A stretch of DNA of 64,000 bases from Gemmatimonadota bacterium (lineage in GTDB: Bacteria; Gemmatimonadota; Gemmatimonadetes; Palauibacterales; Palauibacteraceae), in contig JBDHHR010000005.1 in assembly GCA_039589295.1 (NCBI GenBank), positions 4,919 through 68,918 on the forward strand, written 5' to 3'. Below the pieces are notes generated by a model that saw only the letters and a program-made list of their open reading frames with translations, was not told where the DNA came from and did no database searches. The position numbers and the translations under genes are program-made. Shown in pieces: positions 3,955-52,864 of the stretch (positions are counted from its first letter, which is position 1; each line of letters opens with the position of its first letter).

Positions 3955-3968
3955 GTCTCCCTCCCTTA

Positions 3969-8862: not shown

Positions 8863-9000
8863 GCGGAGATACTCGGCTCCGCGGTCTGCGCTGGCAACAG
8901 CGACAGGGGCGTTAACGCCGCTGTGACACACACCCGAGCGACAGGCGGGCGGCCGGTCACTCCCGGCCGCCCGCCCCGGCATACAATGCCTGTGGCTCCG

Positions 9001-10032: not shown

Positions 10033-10155
10033 TCTCCCATTGCTCCTGTTGCCATTCACTCCCAACCAAACCACACCCGAGGTGCGGCCGGCGCCGACTT
10101 TTCTCGCAGCCGTCTCGTAAGCTTGGACAGCGGAGGGCAGGCACGCGTTGCCCGC

Positions 10156-11154: not shown

Positions 11155-11928
11155 ATGCACGAGGGCAGAAGCGAGACGGCCCGGTCGGGCATCGGTCCCC
11201 TCGCCGCGGCAGCGGGCCTTGTCCGGACCGCCAGGAATATCGCCGTGCTCACGGGCGCCGGCGTGTCGGCTGAGAGCGGCGTTCCGACCTTCCGCGGCGC
11301 CGGCGGCCTGTGGCGGGGCCGGCGGGCGGAAGACTTGGCCACTCCTCTGGCGTTCCGGCGGGACCCCGAGCAGGTGTGGGATTTCTACCGCTGGCGCATG
11401 GAGAGGCTTGACGGAGTGGAGCCCAACGCCGGTCATTTCGCCCTCGCGGCGCTGGGCAGGTGGGCCGAGCGCTTCTGGCTGATCACCCAGAACGTGGACG
11501 GACTGCACACGGCGGCCGGGAGCCGTGAGGTGATCGAGCTCCATGGCAGTCTTCGTACCGCTCGCTGCCGGACCTGCCCGTACCGCTGCCCCATGCTCGA
11601 GGCGAGCACCAGCCCGCTGCCGGAATGTCCGCGCTGCGGCGATCTCCTCCGTCCGGCCGTCGTATGGTTCGGGGAGGCGCTGCCGGAAGATGCGCTGGCG
11701 GCGGCCGGGCAGGCGATCGCCGGGTGCAGCCTCATGCTGGTCGTCGGGACGTCGGGGGTGGTGGAGCCTGCCTCTTCCTTCGCTGCTCTGGCTCGCCGCC
11801 GTGGAGCGCGGATCGTAGAGATCAACCTCGAGCCCACGCCCATTTCCAGGGCGGCGAATGTTAGCATCTTCGGCAGGTCCGGCGAGATCCTCCCCGACCT
11901 GGTAGGACTGGTGACCCGCGGCTCCTGA
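11155..11928 (+). CDS. cobB: NAD-dependent protein deacylase, Sir2/CobB family
   Basis: Motifs GAGVSAESGVPTFRG and ITQNVDGLH are present, plus a Zn-ribbon (CRTCPYRC...CPRCG). Length is 257 aa. The start was calculated from the track ORF end. The 343-codon N-terminal extension of the track ORF 10123..11928 is antisense to the DagK gene. By my own nucleotide counting the ATG lands 1 nt earlier; I defer to the ORF track. Confidence 0.85.
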   Translation: MHEGRSETARSGIGPLAAAAGLVRTARNIAVLTGAGVSAESGVPTFRGAGGLWRGRRAEDLATPLAFRRDPEQVWDFYRWRMERLDGVEPNAGHFALAALGRWAERFWLITQNVDGLHTAAGSREVIELHGSLRTARCRTCPYRCPMLEASTSPLPECPRCGDLLRPAVVWFGEALPEDALAAAGQAIAGCSLMLVVGTSGVVEPASSFAALARRRGARIVEINLEPTPISRAANVSIFGRSGEILPDLVGLVTRGS

Positions 11929-11937
11929 TCCGATCGT

Positions 11938-12609
11938 TCACGGAGAGACCCGCTGCACAGACTCGAGAAAGGCGACCAGCTTCGATTTGTCCAGACGGTC
12001 GTCAGTCCGCACGCCTGTGCACGTGTCCACACCGTACGGTCTGACGAGCCTGATCGCGTCGGCCACGTTGTGCGATGTCAACCCGCCGGCGAGAAGCACG
12101 GGCCGATCGAGTTCCTCCACGATCCGCTGACTGATCGTCCAGTCGTGCGTCTGGCCGGTTCCGGAAACCCACCTGTGCGGGACTGCGGGGTTCCCGGAGT
12201 CGAGCACAACGGCGTCTACCCTCGGGGCAATCTCCCGGGCTTCTACCTCGGCCATCGAGTCCCTGACGTGAATCACCTGGACGAGCGAGACGCCCGGAAG
12301 CGCACGGCGCAAGTGATCGTAGTCGTCAGACGCCAGCCGGTCCCACAACTGGAGCGTATTCACCCCCGTGCTCCGCTGCTTCTCCACGAGCGCGGCGACC
12401 TCGGTCCCGCTCGTCAGCAGGAAGGTGCCGACCGCGCTCGGCACGGACGCCACGATTCCCGCGATGCGGTCGAGACCTATCTCGCCCGGCCCGCTGGGCA
12501 TCCCGGACACCATTCCGACCGCGGCGGCGCCGAACTGCAGCGCCAACCGGGCCTCTTCAGGTGACTGCACGCAACAGATCTTGACCTGTATCGGGGAGAT
12601 CACGCTCAT
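11938..12609 (-). CDS. trpF: Phosphoribosylanthranilate isomerase
   Basis: A 223-aa TIM-barrel protein with KICCVQSPEEARLA near the N-terminus and a conserved ...DSG.P... core. The start was placed at the internal ATG (MSVISPIQVKICC). Confidence 0.8.
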   Translation of the reverse strand: MSVISPIQVKICCVQSPEEARLALQFGAAAVGMVSGMPSGPGEIGLDRIAGIVASVPSAVGTFLLTSGTEVAALVEKQRSTGVNTLQLWDRLASDDYDHLRRALPGVSLVQVIHVRDSMAEVEAREIAPRVDAVVLDSGNPAVPHRWVSGTGQTHDWTISQRIVEELDRPVLLAGGLTSHNVADAIRLVRPYGVDTCTGVRTDDRLDKSKLVAFLESVQRVSP

Positions 12610-38169: not shown

Positions 38170-39684
38170 ATGAGCGACTCGTCAGGGACTCCTCCACCCT
38201 CACCGGCCTCCATCCAACCGAGCGACAAGAGCTTCTTCGGCCATCCGCGGGGTCTGGCCACCCTCTTCTTCACCGAGATGTGGGAACGGTTCAGCTTCTA
38301 CGGCGGTCGGGGAATCCTCATCCTCTTCATGACCGCGGCCGTCGCGACCGGCGGGCTCGGCATGACGACCGCCACCGCGGCGGCCATATACGGACTGTAC
38401 ACGGCATCTGTGTACCTCTTCGCTCTCCCGGGTGGCTGGGTAGCCGACCGGCTGATGGGTCAGCGGAATTCGGTCGTCGCCGGCGGCGTCCTCATAGCGG
38501 CGGGGAACTTCAGCATCGCCACGCCGGGGATGGCGACCTTTTACCTCGGTCTCATCCTGATCGTGCTCGGCACCGGGTTGCTCAAGCCCAACGTGAGCAC
38601 CATCGTCGGCGAGTTATATCCCGAGGGTGGCGCGCGGCGTGATGCCGGTTTCTCGATCTTCTATATGGGGATCAACGTCGGCGCCTTAGTCGCGCCTCTC
38701 ATCTGCGGCTACCTGGGCGAGAACATTAACTGGCACCTCGGGTTCGCGGCGGCGGGCGTGGGCATGGTACTGGGGCTGATCCAGTACAGGCTCGGCTGGG
38801 GCTTCCTGGGAGAGGCCGGCAAATTCCGGGAGGAGGCCCGGGCTACCCGCGGACAGGCGGTCCGCCAGGCCATGCTGGGGGTCCTGCTGGCAGTGATCAT
38901 CGCCCTCGTCCTGTACCTGCTCGGCAGCCGCGGCGTGCTCAACATCACCCTAGAAGGCGCGGCGCAGGCAACCGGCGTGATCATTCTGGCCATAGCCGTG
39001 CTGTTCTTTGCCTCGGTCCTGGCCTTCGGTCACATGGTGTCCGTGGAGAAGCGGCGGGTCGTGTTGATCTTCCTGCTGTTCCTCGGTGCGGCCATATTCT
39101 GGGCCGGTTTCGAGCAGGCCGCGTCGTCACTGAACCTGTTCGCCGAACGGCTGACGGACCGGACGGTGCTCGGGTGGGAGGCGCCGGCGAGTTGGCTTCA
39201 GGCGATCAACCCCCTGTTCATCATCGCCCTCGCGCCGGTGTTCGGCTGGTTGTGGGTCGCCACGAACAACATCGGGCGGGAGCCGTCATTGCCGGTGAAG
39301 TTCGGGCTGGGTCTGGTTCTTCTGGGCGTGGGCTTCCTGGTTATCGCGTGGGGCGCCACGTACGCGACCGACGGCAACTTGGTGAGCCCGGGTTGGTTGG
39401 TTTCCACCTACTTCCTGCATACCTGCGGCGAGCTGTGCCTCAGCCCCGTAGGCCTGAGCAGCATCACCAAGCTCTCGCCGCCGCGGTTCGTCGGACAGAT
39501 GATGGGCACCTGGTTCATGGGTACCGCCCTGGGCAACCTGGTGGCGGGCCTGGTGGCCGGACAGTTCGAGCGCATGCCGCTGCCGCAGCTCTTCTTCACC
39601 GTCGCCATCACGGTGGGTGTGGCCGGAGTGCTGTTCTTCCTGGCCGCGCGGTGGATCAGGAAGATGATGGGGGGCGTGCACTGA
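38170..39684 (+). CDS. Proton-dependent oligopeptide transporter (POT/PTR2 family, DtpT-like)
   Basis: The PTR2 signature FTEMWERFSFYGGRGILILFM is present, followed by 12-14 TM helices. Length is 504 aa. Confidence 0.88.
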   Translation: MSDSSGTPPPSPASIQPSDKSFFGHPRGLATLFFTEMWERFSFYGGRGILILFMTAAVATGGLGMTTATAAAIYGLYTASVYLFALPGGWVADRLMGQRNSVVAGGVLIAAGNFSIATPGMATFYLGLILIVLGTGLLKPNVSTIVGELYPEGGARRDAGFSIFYMGINVGALVAPLICGYLGENINWHLGFAAAGVGMVLGLIQYRLGWGFLGEAGKFREEARATRGQAVRQAMLGVLLAVIIALVLYLLGSRGVLNITLEGAAQATGVIILAIAVLFFASVLAFGHMVSVEKRRVVLIFLLFLGAAIFWAGFEQAASSLNLFAERLTDRTVLGWEAPASWLQAINPLFIIALAPVFGWLWVATNNIGREPSLPVKFGLGLVLLGVGFLVIAWGATYATDGNLVSPGWLVSTYFLHTCGELCLSPVGLSSITKLSPPRFVGQMMGTWFMGTALGNLVAGLVAGQFERMPLPQLFFTVAITVGVAGVLFFLAARWIRKMMGGVH

Positions 39685-39851: not shown

Positions 39852-41315
39852 GTGAGTACATGCACCGGAATCGGCCCGTTCGACGAGCGCCTGGGCGACC
39901 TTCGCTCAGGCGGAGTGTATCTCCTCGCGGGAATGCCCGGCTCGGGCAAGCTCGCCTTCATTCTGCAGTACCTCGCCGAGGGAGTGGGGCACGGCGAACG
40001 GGTGGCCCTGCTCAGCGGCTACGAGCCGGCGGAGGTCTTCGAGCAGGCCGACCACTGGGGACTGGAACTCGAGAAGGCCTGGAAGAGCGACGCGCTGGTA
40101 CTGGCCGGGTTCCGCGGCGAGTATCCGCGGCGGATCCTGCACGCCCCGGATCCCGGAGAGGCGTTCGCCGAGCTCGATCGACTGCTGGACGGGGAGGTGA
40201 CGCGCCTCGGCGTCGATCCGGGCATGCTGCTGTGGGAAACGCGGGCGGGTACGGCCATGGCGCACCAGTTTCTCCAGTGGGCCGACGGTCTGGGCGCCAC
40301 CACCATGGCCACGCTGGTTGGCGACCTGAAGGAGTCCCCCGGACCCTCTACCGAGTGGGTGCTGCAGCGCGCGACAGGCGTGTTTCACTTGGCTCGACTG
40401 GCGGGCGGGCTGCACGAGCTGGCTATCTACCGGATTCACCCGCCGTTGGAGAGCACCGGGCCCATTACGCTGGAGCTGATGCCGGGCGCCGGCTTCGTAG
40501 CTCCTACGGGCCGGATCGGCCGGCGCCGTGGCGACACGGCGGCGGCAGCCGAGGACAGGCTCCTGCTGATGCGGCTGGCAGCCGGACCACCACCCGACGT
40601 CGAGGGCTGGCTCCGCCGGACGTATACGGTGACGGAGGCAAAGGACCCTCTGGAGATGGTCTCTCGCCTGCAGGGTGAGCCGTTCGGCATGCTATGCATT
40701 TCCATCGATCGCGCCCGAACGGAAGAAGCTCTGCAGATCTGCCAAACCGTCCGTCCCATGACCAGCGCGGCTCTCGTCCTGGTGTCCGGCGAACGATTGC
40801 GCTCGGTCGATCGGGCCCGCGCCATAGAAGCCGGCGCCGACGACGTCCTGACGAACGAAGTGAACATCCGGGAGATGGAGTCGAGAATCCGGCGGGCGGC
40901 GACGTGCGCAGGTGAGCGACCGCGGGCCGTTGATCAAGACGGGGGGAGTATCCGGACGCCGGATCCCGTCGATGAGCTCCTGTCGCGAAAAGCCTTCGCG
41001 GCGATCGTGAACGAACGGCTGGCATCGAAGGAGTTCGGTTTCTTCACGTTTGTCGGGCTGGCCGGCGCTCTTCCGCAGGGGACGAGCGAGGCCCTGCGCG
41101 AGAGCATCCGGGTGGAGGCGGGCGATGTGGTCGGGGCGCTGGACGATGGATTCGGAATCGTGCTCCAGGAGGCCCGAGCCGGGCACGCTGAAGGGTTCCT
41201 CGGACGGGTGCGTGCGGCTCTGGCCGAACAACTGGGCGAGGGCGTGGAGCTCGAGACCGAGATCCTGGCCAGCCCAGACGACGCAGAGCGGATTCGGGCG
41301 CTCCTCCCCGGGTAG
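39852..41315 (+). CDS. KaiC/RecA-like ATPase fused to a receiver-like domain and a degenerate GGDEF-like domain
   Basis: The N-terminus (GIGPFDERLGDLRSGGVYLLAGMPGSGKLAFILQYL, Walker A) has the KaiC/RadA-type P-loop. A mid region resembles a CheY-like receiver (MLCISIDRARTEEALQICQTVRPMTSAALVLVSGE...AIEAGADDVLTNEVNIREMESRIRRA). The C-terminus aligns to GGDEF topology but with GGDEF replaced (RKAFAAIVNERL...FGFFTFVGLAG...DVVGALDDGFGIVLQE). It is the first gene of the polysaccharide locus. Confidence 0.7.
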   Translation: MSTCTGIGPFDERLGDLRSGGVYLLAGMPGSGKLAFILQYLAEGVGHGERVALLSGYEPAEVFEQADHWGLELEKAWKSDALVLAGFRGEYPRRILHAPDPGEAFAELDRLLDGEVTRLGVDPGMLLWETRAGTAMAHQFLQWADGLGATTMATLVGDLKESPGPSTEWVLQRATGVFHLARLAGGLHELAIYRIHPPLESTGPITLELMPGAGFVAPTGRIGRRRGDTAAAAEDRLLLMRLAAGPPPDVEGWLRRTYTVTEAKDPLEMVSRLQGEPFGMLCISIDRARTEEALQICQTVRPMTSAALVLVSGERLRSVDRARAIEAGADDVLTNEVNIREMESRIRRAATCAGERPRAVDQDGGSIRTPDPVDELLSRKAFAAIVNERLASKEFGFFTFVGLAGALPQGTSEALRESIRVEAGDVVGALDDGFGIVLQEARAGHAEGFLGRVRAALAEQLGEGVELETEILASPDDAERIRALLPG

Positions 41316-41354: not shown

Positions 41355-43574
41355 ATGGAGAGATCGACGGTCAGGAGGCGAAGGAGATTCCCCTACTGGG
41401 TCGTGTACACCGGCATCACGACCCTGCTCCTGGCTCTGACGGGGTTTCTGGTTCTCATCGTCCTGCCGGAGCGCTTCGTCCTCCAGGCCGGCCTTCGCGA
41501 ATCCGGTATCTCCTTCCCGGCGTCCACCCTCGGGTTCGGGCCTCCGGCGCGCTCGCCGGTGGTGGAGCCTCCTCCTCCGCCGCCGCGTCCCGTCGCGCCA
41601 GCGATCGGCCCGGCCGAAGCGTTATGGAGTGAACTCACGCCCCTTCTGCGTGTCGGCCGCTATCACGAGGCACTGGCCCGCATGGAGGATTACCTGGCCG
41701 TCCACCCGGGAGACCTCGGAGTCCGGCGGGAACGAGCCAGGACCCTGGCCGGGACCGGCGACCGGCAGCGGGCGAGCGAGGCCCTCGGGCGGCTGGCCGA
41801 CGAACCTGGCGAGCTCCAGGACGGCCTGGCTCTCGCCCGCTTCATTCGTGATGCGGGCGAGTTGAGCGAGGCGGTCGAGATCTACCGGACGCTTGTCGAC
41901 AGGTACCCGGACGATGCGGATCTCAGGTACGAGTTGGCGCAGGCGCTCATGTGGTCGGAGCGCTACCGGGAGGCGGAGGCCGAGTTCCGCGCGCTAATCC
42001 GGCTGCGGCCGACGGAGGATGTGTACCGCCTCGAGCTGGCGCGGGTCCTGTACTGGACCGACAGGCTCGAGGAAGCGCGATCCGTTCTGGCTGCTATCTC
42101 CCCCGAGGCCGAGAGCCGGATGGAAGCCGACGCGCTCGACGCCGAGCTGGTGACTCTGCTTGCTCCTGTCGAGCCGGAACCCGAGCCGGTGGACCAATCA
42201 CCGCTGGCTCGAGCGAGGCGTGCGGCGGCAGCCGGCGAGCTGCAGTTGGCCGCCGAGCTCTACCGGGAAGCCCTGCAGGCGGATTCAGGAGACGCCGTAC
42301 TGTGGCTGGAATGGATAGACTTTCAGCAGCGGCGGCTCGGGGACCTGGAGGGCGCCAGGGACGAGCTCATCGCGTACGATGGGCGCTTCGGTCTTTCCCC
42401 CGAGCTGGAGTACCGGCTGGCGCTGCTGCACACGTGGACCGAGCGGAACGAGGAGGCCCGGCTCATCCTCCTCAGGCTCCTGGAGACCAGTCCGAACCGG
42501 GCAGAGGCCTGGAGCCTGCTCGGCGATGTTTATCGCTGGAGCGGGGAAAGACCCGCCGCGGCCGGTGCCTACCGCCGGGCCCTCGTCCTGGATCCGGCAG
42601 ACCCGCGGGCGCTGGCGGGTGCCGCGGACCTCGGATTGCAGCGGGAGCGCATCGTCGCGGCTCGCGAGCGGCGGGGCTACGGGCCACGGGCGAGCGCCTA
42701 CGGCGACTCGGATGAGTATCGGAGATTCGAGCTGGAGGCGGACGCGAGGTTAGCCTTCCCACGCAGCAGTTCGGCTCTCCGGGTGGCAACCGGCTACCGG
42801 TGGCTGGAGGGACTGGATGTTTCCGGCGTCGAGACCACCGACGATGGCCCTTACACAGAGGCCGAGCTCATCCACTGGTGGCGTGAGGCGACCATCCGCA
42901 CGGCCCTTCGAGCCGGAGTACAGTACCTGCGAGGATTCGGCCTCGAGCCGAGTTTCGGCCTGGACGTCGAAGTGCCCGATGCGGGGGGATTCGGCCTCCT
43001 CGGAACGCTGGAGCACGCACCCGCGTACCCGCTCACGGCCACCCTGGAGAGCGTGCAGCAGCCGGTACGAGCCGACCGACTCTTCGTGTCCCTGTTCCGC
43101 TCGCTGGGCGAGCGATGGAGCGTGGGCGGTACCGCGGATGTGGCCGTTCTGACCCATACGGAGGCGAACAACATACGGTGGGGCGGGCGGCTCACGCTGG
43201 GATGGAATGTCTCGCGCCGGGTCGTCGGAGAGCTGAGCTCAAGCTACCTGTCATACACCGACGCGGCCCCTCGCAGCGCGCTGCGAGGGATCTACTGGGA
43301 CCCGGCTTCCTTCTGGGCGACGACGTTGTCGCTGGGCCTGCGGGAACGGCCCGAACTGGGCTGGGGGTACGGCGTCATGCTGACGGGAGGCGCTGCCCTG
43401 ATGGACGAACGCAGCGCGACCGGTACGGTGTGGCTGCCACAGTTTGCGGTCGAGGGGAAGCTGTCGCAAACTGGCCGGAGGCAGGACTTCGAGCTGAGAG
43501 CCTTCTACCGCCGGGGACGGGAGAGGGATTACAGCTCGCTCGGGCTCGACCTGAAGCTGCTCGTGAGGCCGTAG
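41355..43574 (+). CDS. TPR-repeat protein with beta-rich C-terminal domain, PgaA/BcsC-like polysaccharide export candidate
   Basis: An N-terminal TM/signal anchor is followed by a Pro-rich linker, ~8 TPR-like repeats (many W..LG/A..Y...G motifs), and a ~280-aa C-terminal region with alternating hydrophobic patterns ending LGLDLKLLVRP, which is beta-barrel-like. It sits immediately upstream of the PgaC-like synthase. Confidence 0.65.
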   Translation: MERSTVRRRRRFPYWVVYTGITTLLLALTGFLVLIVLPERFVLQAGLRESGISFPASTLGFGPPARSPVVEPPPPPPRPVAPAIGPAEALWSELTPLLRVGRYHEALARMEDYLAVHPGDLGVRRERARTLAGTGDRQRASEALGRLADEPGELQDGLALARFIRDAGELSEAVEIYRTLVDRYPDDADLRYELAQALMWSERYREAEAEFRALIRLRPTEDVYRLELARVLYWTDRLEEARSVLAAISPEAESRMEADALDAELVTLLAPVEPEPEPVDQSPLARARRAAAAGELQLAAELYREALQADSGDAVLWLEWIDFQQRRLGDLEGARDELIAYDGRFGLSPELEYRLALLHTWTERNEEARLILLRLLETSPNRAEAWSLLGDVYRWSGERPAAAGAYRRALVLDPADPRALAGAADLGLQRERIVAARERRGYGPRASAYGDSDEYRRFELEADARLAFPRSSSALRVATGYRWLEGLDVSGVETTDDGPYTEAELIHWWREATIRTALRAGVQYLRGFGLEPSFGLDVEVPDAGGFGLLGTLEHAPAYPLTATLESVQQPVRADRLFVSLFRSLGERWSVGGTADVAVLTHTEANNIRWGGRLTLGWNVSRRVVGELSSSYLSYTDAAPRSALRGIYWDPASFWATTLSLGLRERPELGWGYGVMLTGGAALMDERSATGTVWLPQFAVEGKLSQTGRRQDFELRAFYRRGRERDYSSLGLDLKLLVRP

Positions 43575-43577
43575 AAG

Positions 43578-44918
43578 ATGGCGAGCCGACTGAGGCACCT
43601 GGGCCCCCTGCTGGTGATCGCAACCGCGATCGCGCTCACATCTCTGTTCTTCATTTGGCTGGTGCGTTCGCCGGACCGGCTACGGGTGTTCGTCATCCAG
43701 CTTCTCCTGATTTCCCTGGTGATCTTCCTCGGGATCCTGCTGATCCGTTACTTCACCCTCCTGTGGTTCGGATACCTGCAGCACCAGGAGAGGGGGATCC
43801 GGGGAGATGTGTCTGATGTCGAGCTGCCGCCGGTCTCGGTGGTAGTACCGGCTTACAACGAGGCCACGGTCATCGGCCGCGCCATCGACAGCCTTCTGCG
43901 GCTGGACTACCCGCTGTACGAGGTGATCGTGGTGGACGACGGTTCGGGCGACGGGACGCTCGCGATAGCGGGCGCCAAGGAGGGCCTCCACGAGGGAGTG
44001 GAGGTGCGGGTCTTCTCCAAGCCCAACGGGGGAAAGGCGACTGCCCTGAACCTGGGCATCCACAACGCCCGTTACCCGTTCATCCTGTGCATGGATGCCG
44101 ATTCGATAGTAGAACCGCAGCTTCTGCGAACGTCCGTTCCACACTTCCGCGATCCGTCGGTCGGCGCCGTGGCGGGAAACGTCAAGGTGGAGAACCGCCA
44201 CGGGCTGCTGACCCGACTGCAGGCGCTGGAGTACATCGAGGGACTCAACATGCCGCGCCGCGCCCAGGGCTTCATAGCCGCGGTGAACATAGTGCCGGGA
44301 CCGGTGGGCGTTTTCCGTCGCGAGGCGCTGACCGACGTCGGCGACTACGATACCGACACCTTTGCGGAGGACGCGGACCTGACGCTGAAGCTGATCACCG
44401 AAGGGTGGAAGATAGTCTACGAGGATCAGGCGATCGCCTGGACGCAGGCGCCCGAACGTTTCATCGACCTGGTTCAGCAACGCTACCGCTGGACCCGAGG
44501 TATCCTGCAGGCTGTCCGGAAGCGCAAAGGGCTCCTGTGGCGCCCTGTCCCCGACTTCCCGCTGTGGCTGTCGGGCACGGAGATGGTGTTCGAGGCAATC
44601 ATCTGGCCGATAATGAACGTCTACGCTCACCTGTTCTTCGCCTTAGTCGCGCTTCTGTTCGGCCGCGGGGAGCTCCTGTTGTACTGGTGGATCCTCCTCA
44701 CCCTGCTGGACCTGGTGGCGGCGCTGGTGACCGTCTCGATGGAGGAGGAGTCTCTGTCGCTCGTTCCGCTGGCCATCGTTTACCGCTTCTTTTTCATTCT
44801 GTTTCTGGACGTGACCAAGGCGTTCGCCTCGGTCGAGGAGTTCTTCCGCTTCGGCATGGAGTGGGACAAGCTGCGGCGCGTCCCCGTGGGGAGCGGCGTT
44901 GAGGAGAGTGCCATATGA
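43578..44918 (+). CDS. pgaC: GT2 processive beta-glycan synthase, PgaC/IcaA-like (poly-beta-1,6-GlcNAc synthase family)
   Basis: Motifs VIVVDDGSGDGT, CMDADS and QQRYRWTRG (QxxRW) are present, plus two N-terminal and three C-terminal TM helices. Length is 446 aa, as in PgaC. Confidence 0.85.
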   Translation: MASRLRHLGPLLVIATAIALTSLFFIWLVRSPDRLRVFVIQLLLISLVIFLGILLIRYFTLLWFGYLQHQERGIRGDVSDVELPPVSVVVPAYNEATVIGRAIDSLLRLDYPLYEVIVVDDGSGDGTLAIAGAKEGLHEGVEVRVFSKPNGGKATALNLGIHNARYPFILCMDADSIVEPQLLRTSVPHFRDPSVGAVAGNVKVENRHGLLTRLQALEYIEGLNMPRRAQGFIAAVNIVPGPVGVFRREALTDVGDYDTDTFAEDADLTLKLITEGWKIVYEDQAIAWTQAPERFIDLVQQRYRWTRGILQAVRKRKGLLWRPVPDFPLWLSGTEMVFEAIIWPIMNVYAHLFFALVALLFGRGELLLYWWILLTLLDLVAALVTVSMEEESLSLVPLAIVYRFFFILFLDVTKAFASVEEFFRFGMEWDKLRRVPVGSGVEESAI

Positions 44919-45111: not shown

Positions 45112-47052
45112 ATGCCGCCGAGATCGGAGCCGGTACCGCGCGCCCGCGCTGCAGTTCACTGGCTGAGCGGCCTGGCGCTGCTGGGTATCCTGGCAGGCGG
45201 CGTGATAGCCGCCGCGGTGGCCCTGTGGGAGAACGTCGACGTCCGCAGTCTAGCGCGGCAGGCGGCCGGCGTGACCGAGTCGCCGCCGCTTCCGGGGGAG
45301 CAGACCGGTCCGATGGCAGTGAGTCCCGCAGGCACGGTTTCCGCGCTCCTCGTCTCCCGGGCAAGCGCCGGCTTCTTCCCGGATAGTTCATTCTACCCGG
45401 CGACAATCCGGAGGTGGGAGACCATGCTGGAGGAACTTGGCAGCGTGCGACGCATAGCGTCAGCCGCGGAAATGGCGGAGCTGCCCCCAGGCGCTCTTCT
45501 GGTCGCCCCCGACGCGATCTGCCTGGCTCAGATGGAGGTCGACGCTCTGAGCAGCCATGTCGAAGCGGGGGGCAGCCTGGTGATCGACCGGGCGACGGGC
45601 GCCCGCGACGAGAAGTGTGAGTGGCGGGGCTGGAACGTAGTTCAATCGCTTACCGGGTCCATCGATGTGCTGGAGCGGCCGGCGGAGCAGTCCCTGTTCT
45701 TCACACTCCCCGCGGGGCTGCCGCTATCGGCCGGACTGGCGCCCGGTACCCGGGTGGAGCTGCACCCGGACGCCCGCCTGGGCTTGCTGACGACAGGGCC
45801 GCGCGCCTACTGGTCGGATTGGGCCCTGAATCCAGTCTCGCCCGAGGGGAAGCCCTCGCCTGACGCGGCTGCGGTGCTGCGAAAGGCCGACGGTGAAGGC
45901 CGAGGCCGGGTGGCGTGGTTCGGCTTCCGCACGGGACAGGGCGCAGGCGATCGCAACGAAGCTCTCCTCAGTCAGGTTCTGCGCAACGGCACGCGATGGG
46001 CCGCCGGCGTGCTCATGGCCGAGGTGTCCCCGTGGCCGGCGGGAAGACAGGCCGCGCTGCTCATAGGCCAGGACGTCGAGTCCGGATTCGCCAACGCGGC
46101 TTACCTCGCCGCTTTGCTGCGAGAGAAGGCCGCTCGGGCCTCGTTCTTTGTCGTATCAGAGCTAGCTCAGGAGAATCCCGACGTTGCGGACTCTCTGCTC
46201 GGAGCCGGGGAGATCGGCAGCCAGACCGCGGATCACTATCCCACCGCGGGGCTCCCTCTGGGCGAGCAGACGCTGAGGCTGCGCCGGAGCTGGAGCCAGC
46301 TGCGCCGCTGGTCCGGCCGGCCGCCGGTAGGACTGCGCCCGCCGGAGGAACGGTTCGATGAGAACACGCTTCGGGCATGGCGCGAGGTGGGTGGCGAGTA
46401 CATCGCCGCGGTCAACGACGCTCGCTCCGCGGCTCCGGAGGTTTACACGACGCCGGCCGGGCCCGTGGTTCTCCTCCCGCGTCTTGTCGATGACGATTAC
46501 AACGTCCTGGTGCAGGAAGGAGCCCGCCGCACCCGCCGACTCCGGGACGCGTACCTGCAGGGGATGCGTAAGCTAGGTCCCCTCGGAGGAATAGCTTACC
46601 TCGCCCTGCACACGCAGATCGGCGGAACACCGGATCGGGTGGGCGTCGTCGGGGAGGTAATCGACAGCGCGCGCAGCCAGCCGGGGAACTGGTGGCTGGC
46701 CACGGGCGAGGAAATCGCGCGATGGTGGCTGGCCCGTGACGGGGTCGTGCTGAACCTGCCGGAGTCGGATCCCGACTCGTTGCAGGTTCGGGTGCTGAGC
46801 GGAGACGGGTTGGCCGGGGGCTGGATCGAAGTGTACGGCGACGCCCTGGCGTCGCTCGTGCCGTTCGACAGCGAGCGGCAGCTGCCCTATGCCCGAACCG
46901 AATGGGGACTGCGATTCGCCATGCCCGAGCTTCCCGGCGGCGAAACCAGGACGTTCATCCTGAGACCAGAGCCGGAGGTATCCGGGGAAACCCACGAACC
47001 GGACCGAGACGCTTCGGCAGAGGATACGGCACTTGTCCCCTCCCCCTCGTGA
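45112..47052 (+). CDS. Polysaccharide deacetylase-family protein (PgaB-like, membrane-anchored)
   Basis: An N-terminal TM anchor and a central NodB-like region (ALLIGQDVESGFANAAYLAALLREKAARASFFVVSE...) are present, plus C-terminal extra domains. Length is 646 aa and it sits immediately after the synthase genes. Confidence 0.7.
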   Translation: MPPRSEPVPRARAAVHWLSGLALLGILAGGVIAAAVALWENVDVRSLARQAAGVTESPPLPGEQTGPMAVSPAGTVSALLVSRASAGFFPDSSFYPATIRRWETMLEELGSVRRIASAAEMAELPPGALLVAPDAICLAQMEVDALSSHVEAGGSLVIDRATGARDEKCEWRGWNVVQSLTGSIDVLERPAEQSLFFTLPAGLPLSAGLAPGTRVELHPDARLGLLTTGPRAYWSDWALNPVSPEGKPSPDAAAVLRKADGEGRGRVAWFGFRTGQGAGDRNEALLSQVLRNGTRWAAGVLMAEVSPWPAGRQAALLIGQDVESGFANAAYLAALLREKAARASFFVVSELAQENPDVADSLLGAGEIGSQTADHYPTAGLPLGEQTLRLRRSWSQLRRWSGRPPVGLRPPEERFDENTLRAWREVGGEYIAAVNDARSAAPEVYTTPAGPVVLLPRLVDDDYNVLVQEGARRTRRLRDAYLQGMRKLGPLGGIAYLALHTQIGGTPDRVGVVGEVIDSARSQPGNWWLATGEEIARWWLARDGVVLNLPESDPDSLQVRVLSGDGLAGGWIEVYGDALASLVPFDSERQLPYARTEWGLRFAMPELPGGETRTFILRPEPEVSGETHEPDRDASAEDTALVPSPS

Positions 47053-47129
47053 GGCAACCTTATTCCCTTATTCATTTGGATTCCCTCCGGCGCGGCCGAT
47101 TAGAGTGAGATCACCTTCCGGGAGGCATC

Positions 47130-49043
47130 TTGGGTGAGAAGGAAGTACGCCTGGAAGTGGACGGGGCGGGACTCCGCCTCTTCACGCAGGCTCTCCTTCG
47201 CGACGTGCGCGCTCTGGAGCAGTTGCTGGCCACAGGCGCCATCGAGTCCGGGGTGCGGCGCGTAGGTCTCGAGCAGGAACTCTTCCTGGTAGACGACATG
47301 TGGCGGGCGGCCCCTGTGGCGGTCGAGGCGCTCGAGCTCGTCGACGATCCTCGCGTCACCAGTGAGATCGGCCGGTTCAACCTCGAGTGCAACCTCGATC
47401 CGCTCATCTTCGGCGGTGACTGCCTCCGGCGCATGGAGCAGGATGTGGACGCTCTGCTGGAGACTGTGCGCGAGGCGGTGGCTCAGCTCGGGGCGAACAT
47501 CGTCCTGATCGGTATCCTCCCGACGTTGCGGAAATCAGACCTGAGTATAGACAACATCTTCCCGGCGAACAGGTATTACGCGCTGAACGACGCGCTGACC
47601 CGTTTGCGGGGAGGTCCGTACGATCTCCGCATCAAGGGGACCGACGATCTGCGCGTCACGCACGATTCGGTTATGCTTGAGGCAGCTAACGCCAGCTTCC
47701 AGGCTCATTTCCAGGTCGGCCCCGAAGAGTTCGCCAATCTTTACAACATCGCGATGACGGCCAGCGCGCCGGTCCTCGCCGCAGCCGTCAACTCACCGCT
47801 CATGCTGGGACGCCGCCTGTGGCACGAGACCCGGATCGCTGTGTTCCAGCAATCCATCGACACGCGAGCCGCCATGCCGGAGGTGCGTGACCTGTCGCCG
47901 CGGGTGAGCTTCGGGCGGGAGTGGGTCGACGAATCGGTTCTGGAGGTGTTCAAGGCCGACATCTCGCGTTTCAAGGTGTTGCTGGGACGGGAGATCGACG
48001 AGGATCCCTTCGAGGCCATGGAGGAGGGACGGGTCCCGACCCTGCAGGCTCTTCAGCTCTTCAACAGCACTGTCTACCGCTGGAATCGAGCGTGTTACGG
48101 TGTTGCGGACGGAGTAGCGCACCTGCGAATCGAGAACCGGGTGCTGCCATCGGGACCTACGGTACTGGACGAGATCTCGAACGCGGCCTTCTGGTTCGGT
48201 GTGGTGGCCGGGCTGGCGAACGAAGTGGACGACGTGCGGGAGACGATAGCCTTCCACACGGTGCGCACCAACTTCGTCGCGGCCGCGCGCCACGGCCTGG
48301 ACGCCCAGATGACGTGGCTGGACGGCGAGACTCTCACTGCGCAGGAATTGATTTGCCGGCGGCTCTTGCCGTTCGCCCGGAGAGGTCTGGAAGCGAGCGC
48401 CATAGACGGCCAGGATATCGACCGCTATCTGGGGACCATCGAGGCGCGGGTCGGCTCGCGTCGCACCGGTGCTCACTGGCAGCTGGGCTCGCTCGCTTCG
48501 ATGGGGGAGGATGGGACGCTGGAGGAGCGGATGGCGGCGCTGGTAGCCGCCACCGTCAGCCGCCAGGCCGAGGGTCAGCCCGTGCACCATTGGAGCGAGG
48601 CCGGGTTGGACGAGTCCGGGGGCTGGAAGCCCAGCTTTCAGCGCGTCGAGCAGTACATGTGTACCGACCTGGTCACGGTGAACGAGGAGGAGCCCATCGA
48701 TCTGGTCGCCAACTTGATGGACTGGCATAGGATTCACCATGTGCCTGTCGAAGACCACGAGCACCGGCTCGTGGGGCTGATGTCCCAGAGGCCTCTCATG
48801 CGCTTCCTGGCCAGCGACGAGGCGCGCCGGGCGGAGGGCCCGATCCCGGTGAGCGATCTCATGCAGCGTGAGCTCATAACCGCCTCACCAGAGACGTCGA
48901 CCATCGAAGCCATCGAGAAGATGAGACAGCACGGCATTAGCTGCCTGCCGGTGGTGCGGGAGGGAAGGCTGGTCGGAATCGTGACCGAGCATGACTTCAT
49001 GCGCATCGCGGGCCAACTGCTGGAGGAGAAGCTTCGGGAGTGA
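47130..49043 (+). CDS. GCS2-family carboxylate-amine ligase (YbdK/EgtA-like glutamate-cysteine ligase family 2) fused to a C-terminal CBS-domain pair
   Basis: The N-terminal ~370 aa carry GCS2 hallmarks (VGLEQELFLVD, GTDDLRVTHDSVMLEAANASFQAHFQV, STVYRWNR). The C-terminal ~130 aa have two CBS motifs (VTVNEEEPIDLVANLMDWHRIHHVPVEDHEHRLVGLMS and ITASPETSTIEAIEKMRQHGISCLPVVREGRLVGIVTEHD). TTG start. Confidence 0.75.
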   Translation: MGEKEVRLEVDGAGLRLFTQALLRDVRALEQLLATGAIESGVRRVGLEQELFLVDDMWRAAPVAVEALELVDDPRVTSEIGRFNLECNLDPLIFGGDCLRRMEQDVDALLETVREAVAQLGANIVLIGILPTLRKSDLSIDNIFPANRYYALNDALTRLRGGPYDLRIKGTDDLRVTHDSVMLEAANASFQAHFQVGPEEFANLYNIAMTASAPVLAAAVNSPLMLGRRLWHETRIAVFQQSIDTRAAMPEVRDLSPRVSFGREWVDESVLEVFKADISRFKVLLGREIDEDPFEAMEEGRVPTLQALQLFNSTVYRWNRACYGVADGVAHLRIENRVLPSGPTVLDEISNAAFWFGVVAGLANEVDDVRETIAFHTVRTNFVAAARHGLDAQMTWLDGETLTAQELICRRLLPFARRGLEASAIDGQDIDRYLGTIEARVGSRRTGAHWQLGSLASMGEDGTLEERMAALVAATVSRQAEGQPVHHWSEAGLDESGGWKPSFQRVEQYMCTDLVTVNEEEPIDLVANLMDWHRIHHVPVEDHEHRLVGLMSQRPLMRFLASDEARRAEGPIPVSDLMQRELITASPETSTIEAIEKMRQHGISCLPVVREGRLVGIVTEHDFMRIAGQLLEEKLRE

Positions 49044-50248
49044 GCCACAGCGTCCGTGCCGTCGCCGATGCGCAGGCGCCCCTGAGAGGCGCCCGGGAGG
49101 GGCCCAAACGCCTGATCGGGCTCTTCGGCGGGTACGCGCCGGGCCCGACGCTGGTGTGTGTGGGCGGACTTCACGGCAACGAGCCGGCCGGCGTTCTGGC
49201 CCTGCGCCGCCTGCTGGCCAGGCTCGAAGACTCCCACCCGCCATTCCGGGGGGAGTTGCTGGCCCTGGCGGGGAATCTCGAAGCGCTGAGGCTCGGCCGG
49301 CGCTTCGTCGACCGCGACCTCAACCGCGCGTGGACCCGGCGACAGATAGCGCGCGCGAGATCCGCCTCGAGACCGGGGACCGAGGACCGCGAGCAGCTGG
49401 AGTTGATGGCGGTCATGGCAGATACTCTCGATCGGAATGGCGACGAGATCTACGTAGTGGATCTGCACACCACCTCTGCCGACAGCGCCCCGTTTGTCAC
49501 CCTGGGAGACACCCTGCACAACAGAGCCTTCGCCCGGCGCATAGGCCTCCCGCTCGTCCTGGGGATCGAGGAGCAGATAGAAGGAGCGCTCCTGGAGTTC
49601 GTCAACGAGAGAGGTCCGGTCACCCTGGGAATCGAGGCCGGACAGCACGAGGATCCGGCCTCCATCGATAACCATGAGCGGGCGCTGTGGATGGCCCTGA
49701 TGGCGTCCGGCAACGTGCGGGAGCGGGATGTCCCCTGGGTGCGAGCCATGCGGAGGGAGCTCAGGCAAGCGTACGGAGCGTTGCCAGGCGTCTTCGAGGT
49801 GCGTTATCGCAGGGGAGTCAACGAAACGGACGGATTCCGCATGCGCCCGGGTTACCGGAATCTTCAACCCGTGCTCGAGGGCGAGATCCTGGCCACCGAC
49901 AGGGATGGGCCGGTGAGGGCCCCGGAGGCGGGACGCGTCTTCTTGCCGTTGTACCAGGAACTGGGAGACGACGGCTTCTTCATCGTGCGAGAGATAAGCG
50001 CGGCTTGGCTGCGCGTCTCGTCGGTCCTGCGACGCCTGCGCATGGACGCCATCGCCCACTGGCTCCCCGGTATTCATCGCGCCCGCCGGCGTCCGGAAAC
50101 CCTCATCGTCGACCGCCGCGTGGCCCGCTGGCTGGCTATCGAGTTGTTGCACCTCCTGGGGTTCCGCAAGAAGAGAGTTGCCCGTGGCGCGTTCGTCTTC
50201 AGCCGTCGCCCGCACGATCGACTGCCGCGACGCGGCCATCGCCGGTAG
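49040..50248 (+). CDS. Succinylglutamate desuccinylase/aspartoacylase (AstE/AspA) family Zn-dependent deacylase
   Basis: Motifs VCVGGLHGNEPAG, VDLHT and GIEAGQHEDPASIDNHE are the Zn-ligand and catalytic Glu pattern of this M14-like family. ATGA-coupled to the GCS2 gene. Confidence 0.78.
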   Translation: MSHSVRAVADAQAPLRGAREGPKRLIGLFGGYAPGPTLVCVGGLHGNEPAGVLALRRLLARLEDSHPPFRGELLALAGNLEALRLGRRFVDRDLNRAWTRRQIARARSASRPGTEDREQLELMAVMADTLDRNGDEIYVVDLHTTSADSAPFVTLGDTLHNRAFARRIGLPLVLGIEEQIEGALLEFVNERGPVTLGIEAGQHEDPASIDNHERALWMALMASGNVRERDVPWVRAMRRELRQAYGALPGVFEVRYRRGVNETDGFRMRPGYRNLQPVLEGEILATDRDGPVRAPEAGRVFLPLYQELGDDGFFIVREISAAWLRVSSVLRRLRMDAIAHWLPGIHRARRRPETLIVDRRVARWLAIELLHLLGFRKKRVARGAFVFSRRPHDRLPRRGHRR

Positions 50249-51857
50249 CATCAGGCCCGCGCAGCCCGGCGGTTAATATGGCTGCTGCAGCGGACAGCGC
50301 GCTGAGCCAACCGACCACGTCACCCAGGCGCGTGAACAGTGTGAGGCGGTCCGTCGTCTGCACCCTTACCGGGACGGCCGTGGCCTCGAAGAGTCGCGTC
50401 GATCGCTGCCAACGCCCGAGAGGATCTATGACGCCTGAGATGCCGGTATTCGCCGCGCGGGCTATGCCCACCCGATTCTCGATAGCCCGCATAACCAGGT
50501 GTGAGGGATGCTGGACCAGACCGGCTGTCCGACTCCACCACGGCTCCGCCCGCCCGAACCATGCATCGTTGCTTATATTGACGAGGAAGTCCGCCCCCGC
50601 CGCCCGGTGGCGACGGGAGAGCTGCTGATAGATGGCCTCGTAGCAGATCAGAACTCCGAACCGCGCCTCCGCCAGCTCGAACGGCTCCGTCCAGACGCCG
50701 ACCGCGAATCCCCCCGAAGAACCCGGCTGCCGCATCCAGCCGGGCATGGTAAGCGGTGCCCTCTCGACCCCGGGCACGAGGCGGCGCTTGTCGTACCGTC
50801 CGAGGCCAGCTCCCGCGGGCGAGAAGAACAGCGCCGAGTTGAACGTGCGGGGCGTCCCGTCGCCGCGGTCCTCCAATCCCCAAGCCCCTATCAGCAGGGC
50901 GGCCCCCAGGCGCCGAGCAAGCGACTCGACCCAGGGACCGTACGTAGGGTGGCCAGGCCATCCCAGCGAGGGGACGGGCTCGATCCAGGCCTGCAGCGTC
51001 GTTTCGGGAAGCAGGATCAGGTCGGCGGTCGCGTCTCCGGCGGCACCCGGGCGCAGAAGCAGCTCCACCCTCGTCACGACGCGACGGTTTGCCTCGTCGA
51101 CCTGCAGCTTGAGGTCCTCCGGGATGTTGGGCTGTACGAGGATCACCTCGGCCGCGCTCCGGATATCCAGGGCGCGCCACCGGTATAGCGAGTATGCCGG
51201 TGGAAGAAGAAGGACCACCGCCCCGGTGGCAGTCCACTTACATGCCAGCCGGCCGATCCGGCGCCTGGCGGTGCGTGCGGACAGGAGCGCGAGAGTCCCC
51301 GCCGCCAGGAGGCCGTTGGACAATGCCAGCCAGAAGGTCAGACCGCGGGAGCCGACTATATCCGCGGCACCGACAAGCCAGGGAAAGGAGGTCAGAGTGT
51401 TTCCCAGGCCCATCCACGGAAACGACAACGGACCGAGGTGGGCCGGCACCCACTCGGCCGCCGTCCAGAAGACGGGAAGCGCCAGCCACAGTGGCCACCG
51501 GAGCCGGATGCGAGCCTGGTGCATCGCGACTGTTCCCAACGCGACAAGTACGGCCAGACTCAGCACTGGTACGAGAAACGCGAAGATCGCCCACCACGTG
51601 TAGAAAAGCAGGCTCACCAAGAGCCAGTGGAGGACCAGGGACTGGTATATCAATCCCAGAAGGAACCCGCCGCGCAGGGCTTCGGCCTGCCCTCCCGCGT
51701 CGGGCGGGAGCCTCCCGAGCCACACGCCGAACGGAACGAGAGCGGTGAAGGAAGGAAAGAGGAGATGAAACGGTGGGTGGGCGAGTCCGAGGAGAAGAGC
51801 GCTGGCCAGGATCCAGCCTCGTCCGCGCCGGACCCCGACGACCTGCGGAAGGCTCAC
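50199..51857 (-). CDS. lnt: Apolipoprotein N-acyltransferase
   Basis: An N-terminal polytopic region is followed by a CN-hydrolase domain with catalytic E/K/C context (LLPETT, YDKRRLVPGVE, VLICYEAIY). The start was placed at the GTG that forms a GTGA overlap with the upstream Gfo/Idh/MocA stop. The track ORF extends to 51896. Confidence 0.85.
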   Translation of the reverse strand: MSLPQVVGVRRGRGWILASALLLGLAHPPFHLLFPSFTALVPFGVWLGRLPPDAGGQAEALRGGFLLGLIYQSLVLHWLLVSLLFYTWWAIFAFLVPVLSLAVLVALGTVAMHQARIRLRWPLWLALPVFWTAAEWVPAHLGPLSFPWMGLGNTLTSFPWLVGAADIVGSRGLTFWLALSNGLLAAGTLALLSARTARRRIGRLACKWTATGAVVLLLPPAYSLYRWRALDIRSAAEVILVQPNIPEDLKLQVDEANRRVVTRVELLLRPGAAGDATADLILLPETTLQAWIEPVPSLGWPGHPTYGPWVESLARRLGAALLIGAWGLEDRGDGTPRTFNSALFFSPAGAGLGRYDKRRLVPGVERAPLTMPGWMRQPGSSGGFAVGVWTEPFELAEARFGVLICYEAIYQQLSRRHRAAGADFLVNISNDAWFGRAEPWWSRTAGLVQHPSHLVMRAIENRVGIARAANTGISGVIDPLGRWQRSTRLFEATAVPVRVQTTDRLTLFTRLGDVVGWLSALSAAAAILTAGLRGPDATGDGRVAAVDRAGDG

Positions 51858-52864
51858 GTCTCCATTTCGCGCCCTTCGGAAGCCGAGCGGTAGCACGCTT
51901 CGACTACCCGAATCAGCCGGACCTGATCATCCGGCACCTCCGGTGGCTTCTCGCCGCGTGCGTGGCGGAGGAATTCGGCCCATTCCTGCCGGTACGAGTC
52001 CGCATACAGCTCTGCCGGCGGCCAGTCCATGTCAGGGGTAACGTCCACGATCCCCGATTCCGTGGTCCGCTGCACCTGGAACGGGGTCGAGCGAGCGGAC
52101 CCTTCCGTGCCCAGGGCGTAAAGCACGTGACGATCCCGCTCGTGGACGAGCTCCCAGGTAACTTCGACTGTGGCCGTCGCACCGGTCGCCAGGGCAAGCT
52201 GGACCGCCGCGGATGCCTCCACGTCCCCGGCACCGTGAAGGCGGGCACTGACCCTCTCCACCTCCGGATAGTCGAGGATCCACAGAGCCGTGTCTATCGC
52301 CTGCGCTCCCAGGTCCATCAGAACCCCCCCACCCGACAGTTGCGCGTCACGTCGCCACCCGCGGCGCGGCCGGCGCGCCCGCCTGTTCAGCCACGTGCTC
52401 CGCACGTAGAAGACGTCACCCAGCTCCCCGCTGGCTACGAAATGCTTTATGGCGCGCAGGTCATAGCGGAATCGCTGGTTCATGGCGACCATGAGGTGGC
52501 GCTGGGCCCGGCGGGCGGCTTCGACAACGCGAGCGGCCGAATCGCTGGACGTGGTGAGCGGCCTCTCACACAGAACGTGGCAGCCGTGCTCCAGCGCCCC
52601 CAGCACGCCCTCCTCGTGTGCGTGGTTCGGTGAACAGACGAGCACGGCCTCCAGGTCTGTCTCAGCCGCCAGCTCGTCCAGCGAACCGGCCACCCTGGGA
52701 ACGCCGAAGCGCTCGGCGATGGTCTGAGCCTTCTCCCGTTGTGGATCGACCAGCCCTACCACTTCGACGTCTGACAGGCGGTTCAGGATGGGGAGGTGTA
52801 TGACCTGGCCTACGCTTCCGACGCCCAGCACCGCTATGCGAACGGTCCTCGCCATCCGGCTCAC
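51854..52864 (-). CDS. Gfo/Idh/MocA-family NAD(P)-dependent oxidoreductase
   Basis: An N-terminal Rossmann fold (IAVLGVGSVGQVIHLPIL) is present, with a C-terminal alpha/beta domain. Length is 336 aa. Confidence 0.85.
   Translation of the reverse strand: MSRMARTVRIAVLGVGSVGQVIHLPILNRLSDVEVVGLVDPQREKAQTIAERFGVPRVAGSLDELAAETDLEAVLVCSPNHAHEEGVLGALEHGCHVLCERPLTTSSDSAARVVEAARRAQRHLMVAMNQRFRYDLRAIKHFVASGELGDVFYVRSTWLNRRARRPRRGWRRDAQLSGGGVLMDLGAQAIDTALWILDYPEVERVSARLHGAGDVEASAAVQLALATGATATVEVTWELVHERDRHVLYALGTEGSARSTPFQVQRTTESGIVDVTPDMDWPPAELYADSYRQEWAEFLRHARGEKPPEVPDDQVRLIRVVEACYRSASEGREMET

Follow-up and report, generated by a model that had tools for sequence, protein, structure and literature searches.

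A widely conserved pairing of a divergent, CBS-tailed ligase with an AstE/AspA-type amidohydrolase in Gemmatimonadota and other bacterial phyla

By combining comparative genomics, profile searches and structure prediction, our analysis of a 64,000-nucleotide stretch of a Gemmatimonadota genome (hereafter the window) brings into view two adjacent plus-strand genes that form an autonomous, widely conserved and translationally coupled two-enzyme module. The upstream gene encodes a predicted amide ligase with a glutamate-cysteine-ligase-type core and a C-terminal CBS pair; the downstream gene encodes a predicted Zn amidohydrolase of the AstE/AspA type. That the two occur together far beyond chance is strongly supported by the loci we scanned, and we are highly confident that they are independent of the exopolysaccharide (EPS) genes beside which they lie in the window. 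As to their role, we put forward at about even confidence that they constitute a module, gated by a nucleotide, in which a gamma-glutamyl-amino-acid conjugate is both made and cleaved. The two genes and their parts are:

47130-49043, plus strand: ligase open reading frame (ORF), 637 aa, its stop codon ending at 49043
47120-47125, plus strand: Shine-Dalgarno-like GGGAGG, 4 nt 5' of the ligase TTG, read from the sequence
47130-48614, plus strand: ligase core (residues 1-495), predicted divergent glutamate-cysteine-ligase/YbdK fold, from Pfam, AlphaFold2 and Foldseek
48636-49025, plus strand: C-terminal CBS pair (Bateman module), ligase residues ~503-632, two copies of PF00571
49040-50248, plus strand: AstE/AspA-type Zn amidohydrolase ORF, 402 aa
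~49139-49648, plus strand: AstE catalytic domain, PF24827 AstE_AspA_cat
~49997-50224, plus strand: family-specific C-terminal extension of the amidase, residues ~320-395, ~80 aa

Our locus scan took one genome per species and yielded 80 loci, 78 of them informative, in which a full-length homologue shares 47-78% identity with the ligase. They represent Gemmatimonadota, Planctomycetota (the cultured Saltatorellus ferox and Rohdeia mirabilis among them), Acidobacteriota, Eisenbacteria, Actinomycetota, Proteobacteria, Dadabacteria, Thermodesulfobacteriota, Calditrichota and Chloroflexota. Directly 3' of the ligase, and in the same orientation, 60 of the 78 informative loci have an AstE homologue, and these 60 span about eight phyla: the adjacency holds at 26 of 27 Gemmatimonadota and 22 of 23 Planctomycetota loci, at 2 of 10 from Acidobacteriota and at none of the 4 from Proteobacteria or the 3 from Actinomycetota, and it is also found in Eisenbacteria, Dadabacteria, Thermodesulfobacteriota and Limnocylindria. 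In all Gemmatimonadota pairs but one there is a start codon at the 4-nt overlap with the ligase stop, an arrangement that recurs in other phyla; at the exceptional Gemmatimonadota locus the AstE match itself overlaps the ligase end. No third gene was conserved across phyla beside the pair in the loci scanned.

The two enzymes also occur as single polypeptides, in at least five distinct 50%-identity clusters from independent assemblies. Two of these fusions have the order GCS2-CBS-AstE (P0141, P0186) and three the order GCS2-AstE (P0235, P0244, P0245), and reading the sequences of P0141, P0235 and P0244 showed their linkers to be continuous. Because adjacency and translational coupling are both conserved and natural fusions exist, we regard the two proteins as a functional ligase/amidase pair. 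The first-pass annotation of the window, which had described them as a ligase/deacylase pair and proposed that its conservation be examined, is borne out on this point.

Both ORFs lie where that annotation had placed them, with boundaries identical to those of independent NCBI gene calls in a Gemmatimonadota metagenome-assembled genome (GCA_039589975.1, JBDHGG010000007.1). The start codon of the ligase, read from the sequence, is TTG at 47130; the GGAGG upstream of it is unvaried in 20 aligned relatives, and the N-terminus, Met-Gly, agrees with the family consensus. The stop of the ligase does overlap the start of the amidase, as had been noted, but the overlap reads GTGA (start GTG at 49040-49042, stop TGA at 49041-49043) and not ATGA.

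The ligase is a very divergent member of the glutamate-cysteine-ligase superfamily whose predicted catalytic residues are intact. Its match to PF04107 (GCS2) is weak, at 38.5 bits against a cut-off of 21 (E = 1.1e-9, residues 45-305), and a profile of the core (residues 1-495) found no significant match among PDB sequences, the best being yeast glutamate-cysteine ligase (GCL) at E = 0.2. An AlphaFold2 model built from a diverse alignment (predicted local distance difference test score, pLDDT, 89.7) has YbdK (1r8g) as its top Foldseek match (E = 1e-13, template modelling score, TM, 0.78-0.80), and yeast GCL (3ig5) and plant GCL (2gwc) are also found, with Foldseek probability 1.0 and TM 0.7-0.8 on the target for YbdK/GCL structures. 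Nine residues, E48, E50, E86, Q191, H193, R235, R333, E335 and R337, do not vary across 39-72 family members. In low-probability local alignments by hhalign, E48/E50/E86 fall, in a positionally sensible way, onto E27/E29/E67 of E. coli GshA, which we take to be Mg2+ ligands, and E335/R337 fall onto the E-x-R motif of YbdK. The E-x-E, E, H and E-x-R positions of the ligase thus probably match the Mg/ATP site of the superfamily. The ligase is therefore like YbdK and the GCLs in fold, in its PF04107 match and in these positions; it differs from them in sequence, with only 13-16% identity to the top structural matches, in the length of its core (~490 aa against 372 aa for YbdK) and in having a C-terminal CBS pair and a dedicated amidase partner.

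Curated family models place the ligase outside the named families. The EgtA model TIGR03444 scores 27.2 bits against a cut-off of 370.8 and the GshA model NF010043 20.5 against 409, and the YbdK models TIGR02050 and NF010039 are not among the best 25 of its 29 curated-model matches; a CBS-less relative scores 40.8 against 176.4 with the YbdK model, and a CBS-less GCS2-AstE fusion relative 17.7 against 463 with the plant-type GCL model TIGR01436. The ligase is thus an orthologue of neither YbdK nor EgtA, and the label "YbdK/EgtA-family" given to it at first pass proves too specific. The accompanying statement that this is not an Egt cluster was right, given the EgtA score and the absence of egtB-E among the neighbours, and the domains named then, GCS2, paired CBS and AstE_AspA, were all recovered by Pfam. 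A score below the GshA cut-off may still be compatible with Glu-Cys ligase activity. The clade to which the ligase belongs is large: an exhaustive search with the core among 1.84 billion 50%-identity representatives returned 2,805 at E <= 1e-3 and 748 at E <= 1e-30, and a core profile search of a 90%-identity collection matched at least 8,000 clusters. We found no curated model and no sequence-detectable solved structure for this clade, and in the accessible literature no description of the clade, of its CBS gating or of its coupling or fusion to an amidase.

The CBS pair would make the ligase responsive to a nucleotide. Its two PF00571 repeats together score 94 bits over residues ~505-626. 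Read directly, CBS2 carries GIVTEHD, a complete canonical ribose-binding motif (G-h-h-T-x-x-D), and CBS1 carries GLMSQRP, which lacks the Asp of that motif. The closest solved structures are adenine-nucleotide complexes, among them AcuB with AMP, ADP, ATP or Ap4A, and MJ0100, the class of ligand that we propose for the ligase; like IMPDH, AcuB and CBS-pyrophosphatase, the ligase has a tandem CBS pair appended to a catalytic domain. We found no other GCL-superfamily enzyme with a CBS pair in the accessible literature. Among the best 150 50%-identity representatives, 72 of 130 near-full-length proteins bear the CBS pair, and the CBS-less remainder (~490 aa) is mostly actinomycetotal. The fusion is thus the normal, majority architecture of this clade; its earlier description as uncommon holds for PF04107 overall and not within the clade.

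A GCS2-CBS-HIT fusion also exists (P0124, 800 aa, with cluster members P0511 and P0512), in which the HIT domain occupies the place that AstE has in other fusions. A 331-aa member of its cluster was named an Ap4A HIT-family hydrolase/CBS protein by the Joint Genome Institute (JGI). The HIT family includes Ap4A and nucleotide phosphoramidate hydrolases, and this fusion may be a clue to which nucleotide the CBS pair senses.

The amidase belongs to the AstE/AspA family by Pfam domain, fold and conserved residues. PF24827 (AstE_AspA_cat) matches residues 34-203 of the 402-aa protein at 74.4 bits against a cut-off of 25, and the AlphaFold2 model (pLDDT 89.3) has E. coli AstE (1yw6) as its top Foldseek match (E = 8.5e-17), with DoeB/EutE (6twm), aspartoacylase, aminoacylase-3 and the cyanophycin dipeptide hydrolase CphZ among the other top matches and MpaA-type and other M14 peptidases among the weaker ones. 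Across 35 homologues the H-x-x-E...H zinc-ligand pattern (H45, E48, H143) does not vary, nor do the triad R88, N95 and R96, which we take to be the oxyanion- and alpha-carboxylate-binding residues of aspartoacylase and carboxypeptidase, and the acidic residues E177, E178 and E199. The predicted metal site and the carboxypeptidase-like Arg/Asn/Arg triad are thus intact. Every one of the nearest structures belongs to an enzyme that cleaves acyl-NH-CH(R)-COO- bonds, in succinyl-Glu, acetyl-diaminobutyrate (acetyl-DABA), acetyl-Asp, acetyl-aromatic amino acids or beta-Asp-Arg, and with CphZ the family has an isopeptide (omega-amide) dipeptidase among its members.

Contrasting with these likenesses, identity to solved AstE/AspA members is at most 23%, and the amidase scores far below the equivalog cut-offs of AstE proper (TIGR03242, 42.3 against 305.65) and aspartoacylase proper (NF002601, 51.5 against 180). 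Its context is not that of arginine-succinyltransferase, ectoine or cyanophycin metabolism, and no astA-D genes lie near the pair in the window. It also differs from AstE and aspartoacylase in a C-terminal mini-domain of about 80 aa that follows the canonical fold and is kept in stand-alone AstE partners; the fusions P0141, P0186 and P0244 end just after that fold and lack it. In L001, the closest EPS-cassette-bearing relative in the genome collection, the AstE gene (11911-12417) is shortened to 168 aa, of which only residues ~24-142 match, as if the partner were decaying in that lineage.

The genes that stand in for or join AstE elsewhere bear on the chemistry of the pair. In L044 (Acidobacteriota, 2452-4182) a gamma-glutamyltransferase (GGT) scoring above the TIGR00066 cut-off overlaps the ligase stop by 4 nt, and in two metagenomic loci, L095 (7048-8751) and L097 (6960-8681), a PF01019 GGT follows the ligase-CBS gene by 22-42 nt, with the NAD(P) transhydrogenase genes pntAB immediately 5' of the ligase; GGT takes the place of AstE in these three. 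In L048 (Phycisphaerales, 8525-10264) another GGT above the TIGR00066 cut-off joins the pair in the order ligase-AstE-GGT. Among gammaproteobacterial loci (L049, 6170-6640; L050, 4548-5528; L068, 6412-7859), L049 and L068 encode just after the ligase a 156-aa protein of unassigned function, whose hydrophobic N-terminal segment runs up to a Cys, as in lipoproteins; in L050 and L068 a carbon-nitrogen (CN) hydrolase that resembles formamidases and aliphatic amidases then stands where AstE would be. In Actinomycetota and Chloroflexota, a divergent 418-aa ATP-grasp protein, for which no Pfam family scored above cut-off, and one or two PF00756 esterases lie directly 5' of CBS-bearing and CBS-less ligases alike, in these clusters:

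L037, 7953-9936: ATP-grasp, esterase, ligase and AstE in a row
L038, 6056-8124: the same four genes in a row
L055, 6352-9928: ATP-grasp/esterase cluster
L057, L059 and L081: ATP-grasp/esterase clusters
L085, 4751-6001: ATP-grasp/esterase cluster
L087, 3904-5919: ATP-grasp/esterase cluster

The recurring theme appears to be an amide ligase with an amide or ester hydrolase and sometimes a second ligase. The GGT neighbours point to gamma-glutamyl chemistry, and the ATP-grasp neighbour suggests a two-ligase pathway resembling GshA plus GshB. A gamma-glutamyl small molecule, which the first-pass annotation had offered as a fallback, also fits the GCL fold of the ligase and GGT replacing or joining AstE in four loci.

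In the window the pair is flanked by the POT, KaiC/REC-like, TPR, GT2, deacetylase, Lnt and GFO oxidoreductase genes and by an outer membrane protein (OMP) gene. Those that matter here, with an upstream element of the ligase, are:

38170-39684, plus strand: POT-family di/tripeptide transporter, conserved near the pair throughout Gemmatimonadota
39852-41315, plus strand: KaiC/REC-like protein, 487 aa, with weak KaiC-ATPase (N-terminal) and receiver-domain similarity
41355-43574: TPR gene of the EPS cassette
43578-44918: GT2 gene of the EPS cassette, PgaC-like
45112-47052: deacetylase gene of the EPS cassette, 646 aa
47032-47061, plus strand: bipartite element CTTGTC-N16-GCAACCTT, its first half inside the 3' end of the deacetylase gene
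50199-51896, minus strand: lnt, apolipoprotein N-acyltransferase, convergent with the AstE gene

The first-pass annotation had taken the pair to be appended to the EPS operon, a view that the relatives do not sustain. The TPR-GT2-deacetylase cassette lies beside the pair in 5 of 28 Gemmatimonadota loci (L001, L017, L018, L020 and L021) and in none of 52 loci from outside that phylum. At the other Gemmatimonadota loci the gene upstream of the ligase is the KaiC/REC-like gene, at ~330-390 nt, or the POT transporter gene, which directly abuts the ligase (13-50 nt) in L002 and L023-L025 and lies two genes upstream of it in most. Because close relatives differ in its presence, the cassette is a variable insertion that separates the KaiC/REC-like gene from the ligase unit. 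Conversely, the bipartite element stays with the ligase: its family pattern, CTTGTC-N14-19-GCRACYTT, has a single match in the window against 0 expected and occurs once per locus, ~58-98 nt 5' of the ligase start, in 21 Gemmatimonadota loci, with and without the EPS cassette upstream. Since the motif is kept whatever gene precedes the ligase, the ligase-amidase unit has a conserved cis-element of its own, a candidate for its promoter or operator; the spacing of the motif is outside that of sigma-70. Weighing against independence, no terminator was predicted in the gap between the deacetylase stop (47050-47052) and the ligase, which is 77 nt (47053-47129), as had been reported. Read-through from the EPS genes may therefore occur in the genome of the window, where co-transcription would be incidental.

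Several further observations concern this neighbourhood. The GT2 protein scores 202 bits with the PgaC equivalog, under its cut-off of 422. The deacetylase has an extra N-terminal region with sub-threshold matches to DUF4350 and GH42M. The KaiC/REC-like gene, conserved upstream of the ligase in 20 Gemmatimonadota loci, could encode a lineage-specific regulator, and the proximity of POT hints at a link to peptide or amino-acid supply. A GC-rich hairpin region follows the bipartite motif (47032-47129 in the window; also L001-L026 and L076), in which GCGACCUU could pair with the GGAGGUYGC ribosome-binding site in many relatives; the predicted folding is not significant in energy, and in the window most of the helix formed by GCGACCUU is missing. 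The 3' end of the AstE gene overlaps that of the convergent lnt by 50 nt (50199-50248). We find lnt at this position only in the window, L023 and L025, and other relatives have there a minus-strand ORF of ~395 aa and unassigned function.

Taken as a gamma-glutamyl system, the module might work as follows. The ligase would activate a carboxylate with ATP, most likely the gamma-carboxylate of glutamate, and couple it to an amino acid, through the alpha-amino group, or to a related amine, giving a gamma-glutamyl-X product with a free alpha-carboxylate; cysteine is a serious candidate for X, which would make the product a gamma-Glu-Cys-type thiol. The CBS pair would bind an adenine nucleotide (AMP, ADP, ATP or one of Ap4A type) and gate the ligase by energy or stress state. 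The amidase would dock on the ligase through its C-terminal extension, a role we infer for the mini-domain of the free-standing form because the fused forms lack it. It would hydrolyse an N-acyl-amino-acid amide bond, the same chemical class as the product of the ligase, and most economically it would cleave that very product, so that the opposing pair would set the size of the conjugate pool, as glutathionylspermidine synthetase/amidase (Gss) does. In E. coli Gss and in trypanothione synthetase-amidase, an amide ligase and an amidase for the same bond class are encoded together or fused, and in Gss-type enzymes regulation decides between net synthesis and hydrolysis of a gamma-glutamyl-related conjugate. 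Gss is not of the same family, and for the ligase/AstE pair opposing activities are presumed: the known enzymes combine ATP-grasp and CHAP domains, unrelated in fold to the GCL-like and AstE/M14-like domains here, and Gss is regulated through the redox state of an amidase cysteine, whereas here the CBS pair sits on the ligase.

Several points weigh against this proposal. An AstE partner is missing at 18 of the 78 informative loci and is hence not obligatory. The GGT association comes from four loci, and the ligase and AstE appear cytosolic, unlike GGT, which is usually periplasmic. The mapping of ligase residues onto GshA and YbdK comes from low-probability local alignments, and docking through the C-terminal extension is pure inference. 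The data are equally compatible with glutamate or another carboxylate as donor and with a small molecule or a peptide as acceptor. Finally, a ligase fused to the hydrolase of its own product risks a futile cycle, and gene fusions more often join consecutive steps.

That preference for consecutive steps fits a sequential salvage route, in which AstE would free an amino acid from its N-acetyl or N-succinyl form, taken from imported peptides or conjugates, and hand it straight on to the ligase, which would gamma-glutamylate it. AstE-family deacylases do release free amino acids, and the POT transporter adjoins the ligase in L002 and L023-L025, lies two genes upstream in most Gemmatimonadota and is present upstream in the window as well. 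Linkage to POT is seen in no phylum but Gemmatimonadota, however, and could simply reflect synteny within that lineage, while GGT, as a substitute for AstE, cleaves gamma-glutamyl bonds and so fits product turnover better than substrate supply; we find salvage quite improbable. The ligase could otherwise be a true gamma-glutamylcysteine ligase, a fourth GshA-like lineage that is CBS-gated and serves a glutathione-type or gamma-Glu-Cys thiol, with AstE as an accessory in turnover. Its GCL fold would agree with this, as would GGT and pntAB neighbours tied to glutathione or NADPH economy, an ATP-grasp neighbour that in Actinomycetota and Chloroflexota parallels GshA plus GshB, esterases of a family (PF00756) that includes S-formylglutathione hydrolase, and the structural match of the amidase to aminoacylase-3, an AstE/AspA-family enzyme that deacetylates mercapturates. 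Nothing, however, points to cysteine specificity, the curated GshA and EgtA models remain far under their cut-offs, the esterase resembles S-formylglutathione hydrolase only at a non-significant E of 0.04, and neither gshB nor glutathione S-transferase (GST) or glutaredoxin genes were seen in the neighbourhoods examined. Gemmatimonadetes and Acidobacteria are, moreover, predicted bacillithiol producers (PMC6282198). We therefore hold this reading to be possible and, on present evidence, unlikely.

Macromolecular substrates fit less well. The Pup ligase PafA and the depupylase Dop have a GS/GCL-like fold (GS, glutamine synthetase), ATP-dependent amidoligases are often paired with M14-clan peptidases, and deglutamylases act opposite RimK/TTL ligases. 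By analogy, the ligase could act like PafA and couple an amine to a peptide or protein through a glutamate-type carboxylate of the latter, and the M14-like AstE could trim or remove the tag in the manner of Dop or a deglutamylase, which would accord with the MpaA-type and M14 peptidases that the amidase matches more weakly in structure. Beside the pair, however, neither a small tag-like ORF nor a candidate substrate protein is conserved in any phylum, both enzymes have their nearest structural relatives among those that use small molecules, and the GGT and CN-hydrolase replacements point to metabolites, so that tagging seems very unlikely to us. Still less probable, to the point of being nearly dismissible, is the polymer decoration suggested at first pass, whereby the pair would add or remove an acidic acyl or aminoacyl group on amines exposed by the deacetylase on a poly-N-acetylglucosamine (PNAG)-like polymer. 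The genes are co-directional across the 77-nt gap, and the arrangement recurs at the five cassette-bearing loci. Yet the annotation had itself taken the occurrence of the pair elsewhere, apart from glycosyltransferases, as an argument against its idea, and 55 of the 60 pair-bearing loci lack any PgaC-like glycosyltransferase, the cassette being missing from those 55 and from every locus outside Gemmatimonadota. The ligase keeps its upstream motif independently of the preceding gene while close relatives differ in the cassette; deacetylation of PNAG type is periplasmic (PgaB), and neither enzyme of the pair has a signal peptide; and none of the alternative partners, GGT, CN hydrolase or ATP-grasp ligase, is a sugar enzyme.

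For the biology of these bacteria, one lesson is that adjacency in a single genome can mislead: the EPS cassette is a variable insert beside an older, independent unit. Both folds of that unit are known; it is for the clade, its predicted CBS gating and its coupling or fusion to an amidase that we found no earlier account. The ligase core defines a large, unstudied clade of the glutamate-cysteine-ligase superfamily. That this core is nearly always paired with or fused to an amidase, and has a CBS sensor, suggests that Gemmatimonadota, Planctomycetota, Acidobacteriota and other phyla regulate a pool of gamma-glutamyl conjugate. Low-molecular-weight thiols are neither documented nor predicted for Planctomycetes and some other phyla, and 21% of gshB-encoding genomes lack a recognised gshA (PMC6282198). 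It is conceivable, if rather doubtful, that the CBS-tailed ligase is an unrecognised nucleotide-gated lineage of gamma-glutamylcysteine (or gamma-glutamyl-thiol) ligases that, with its dedicated AstE partner or, in other phyla, with GGT or an ATP-grasp protein, would make and regulate the low-molecular-weight redox thiol of Planctomycetota and related phyla. Because Planctomycetes have no such known or predicted thiol, this widespread and experimentally tractable enzyme pair, uncharacterised to date, offers a concrete, testable candidate for filling that gap.

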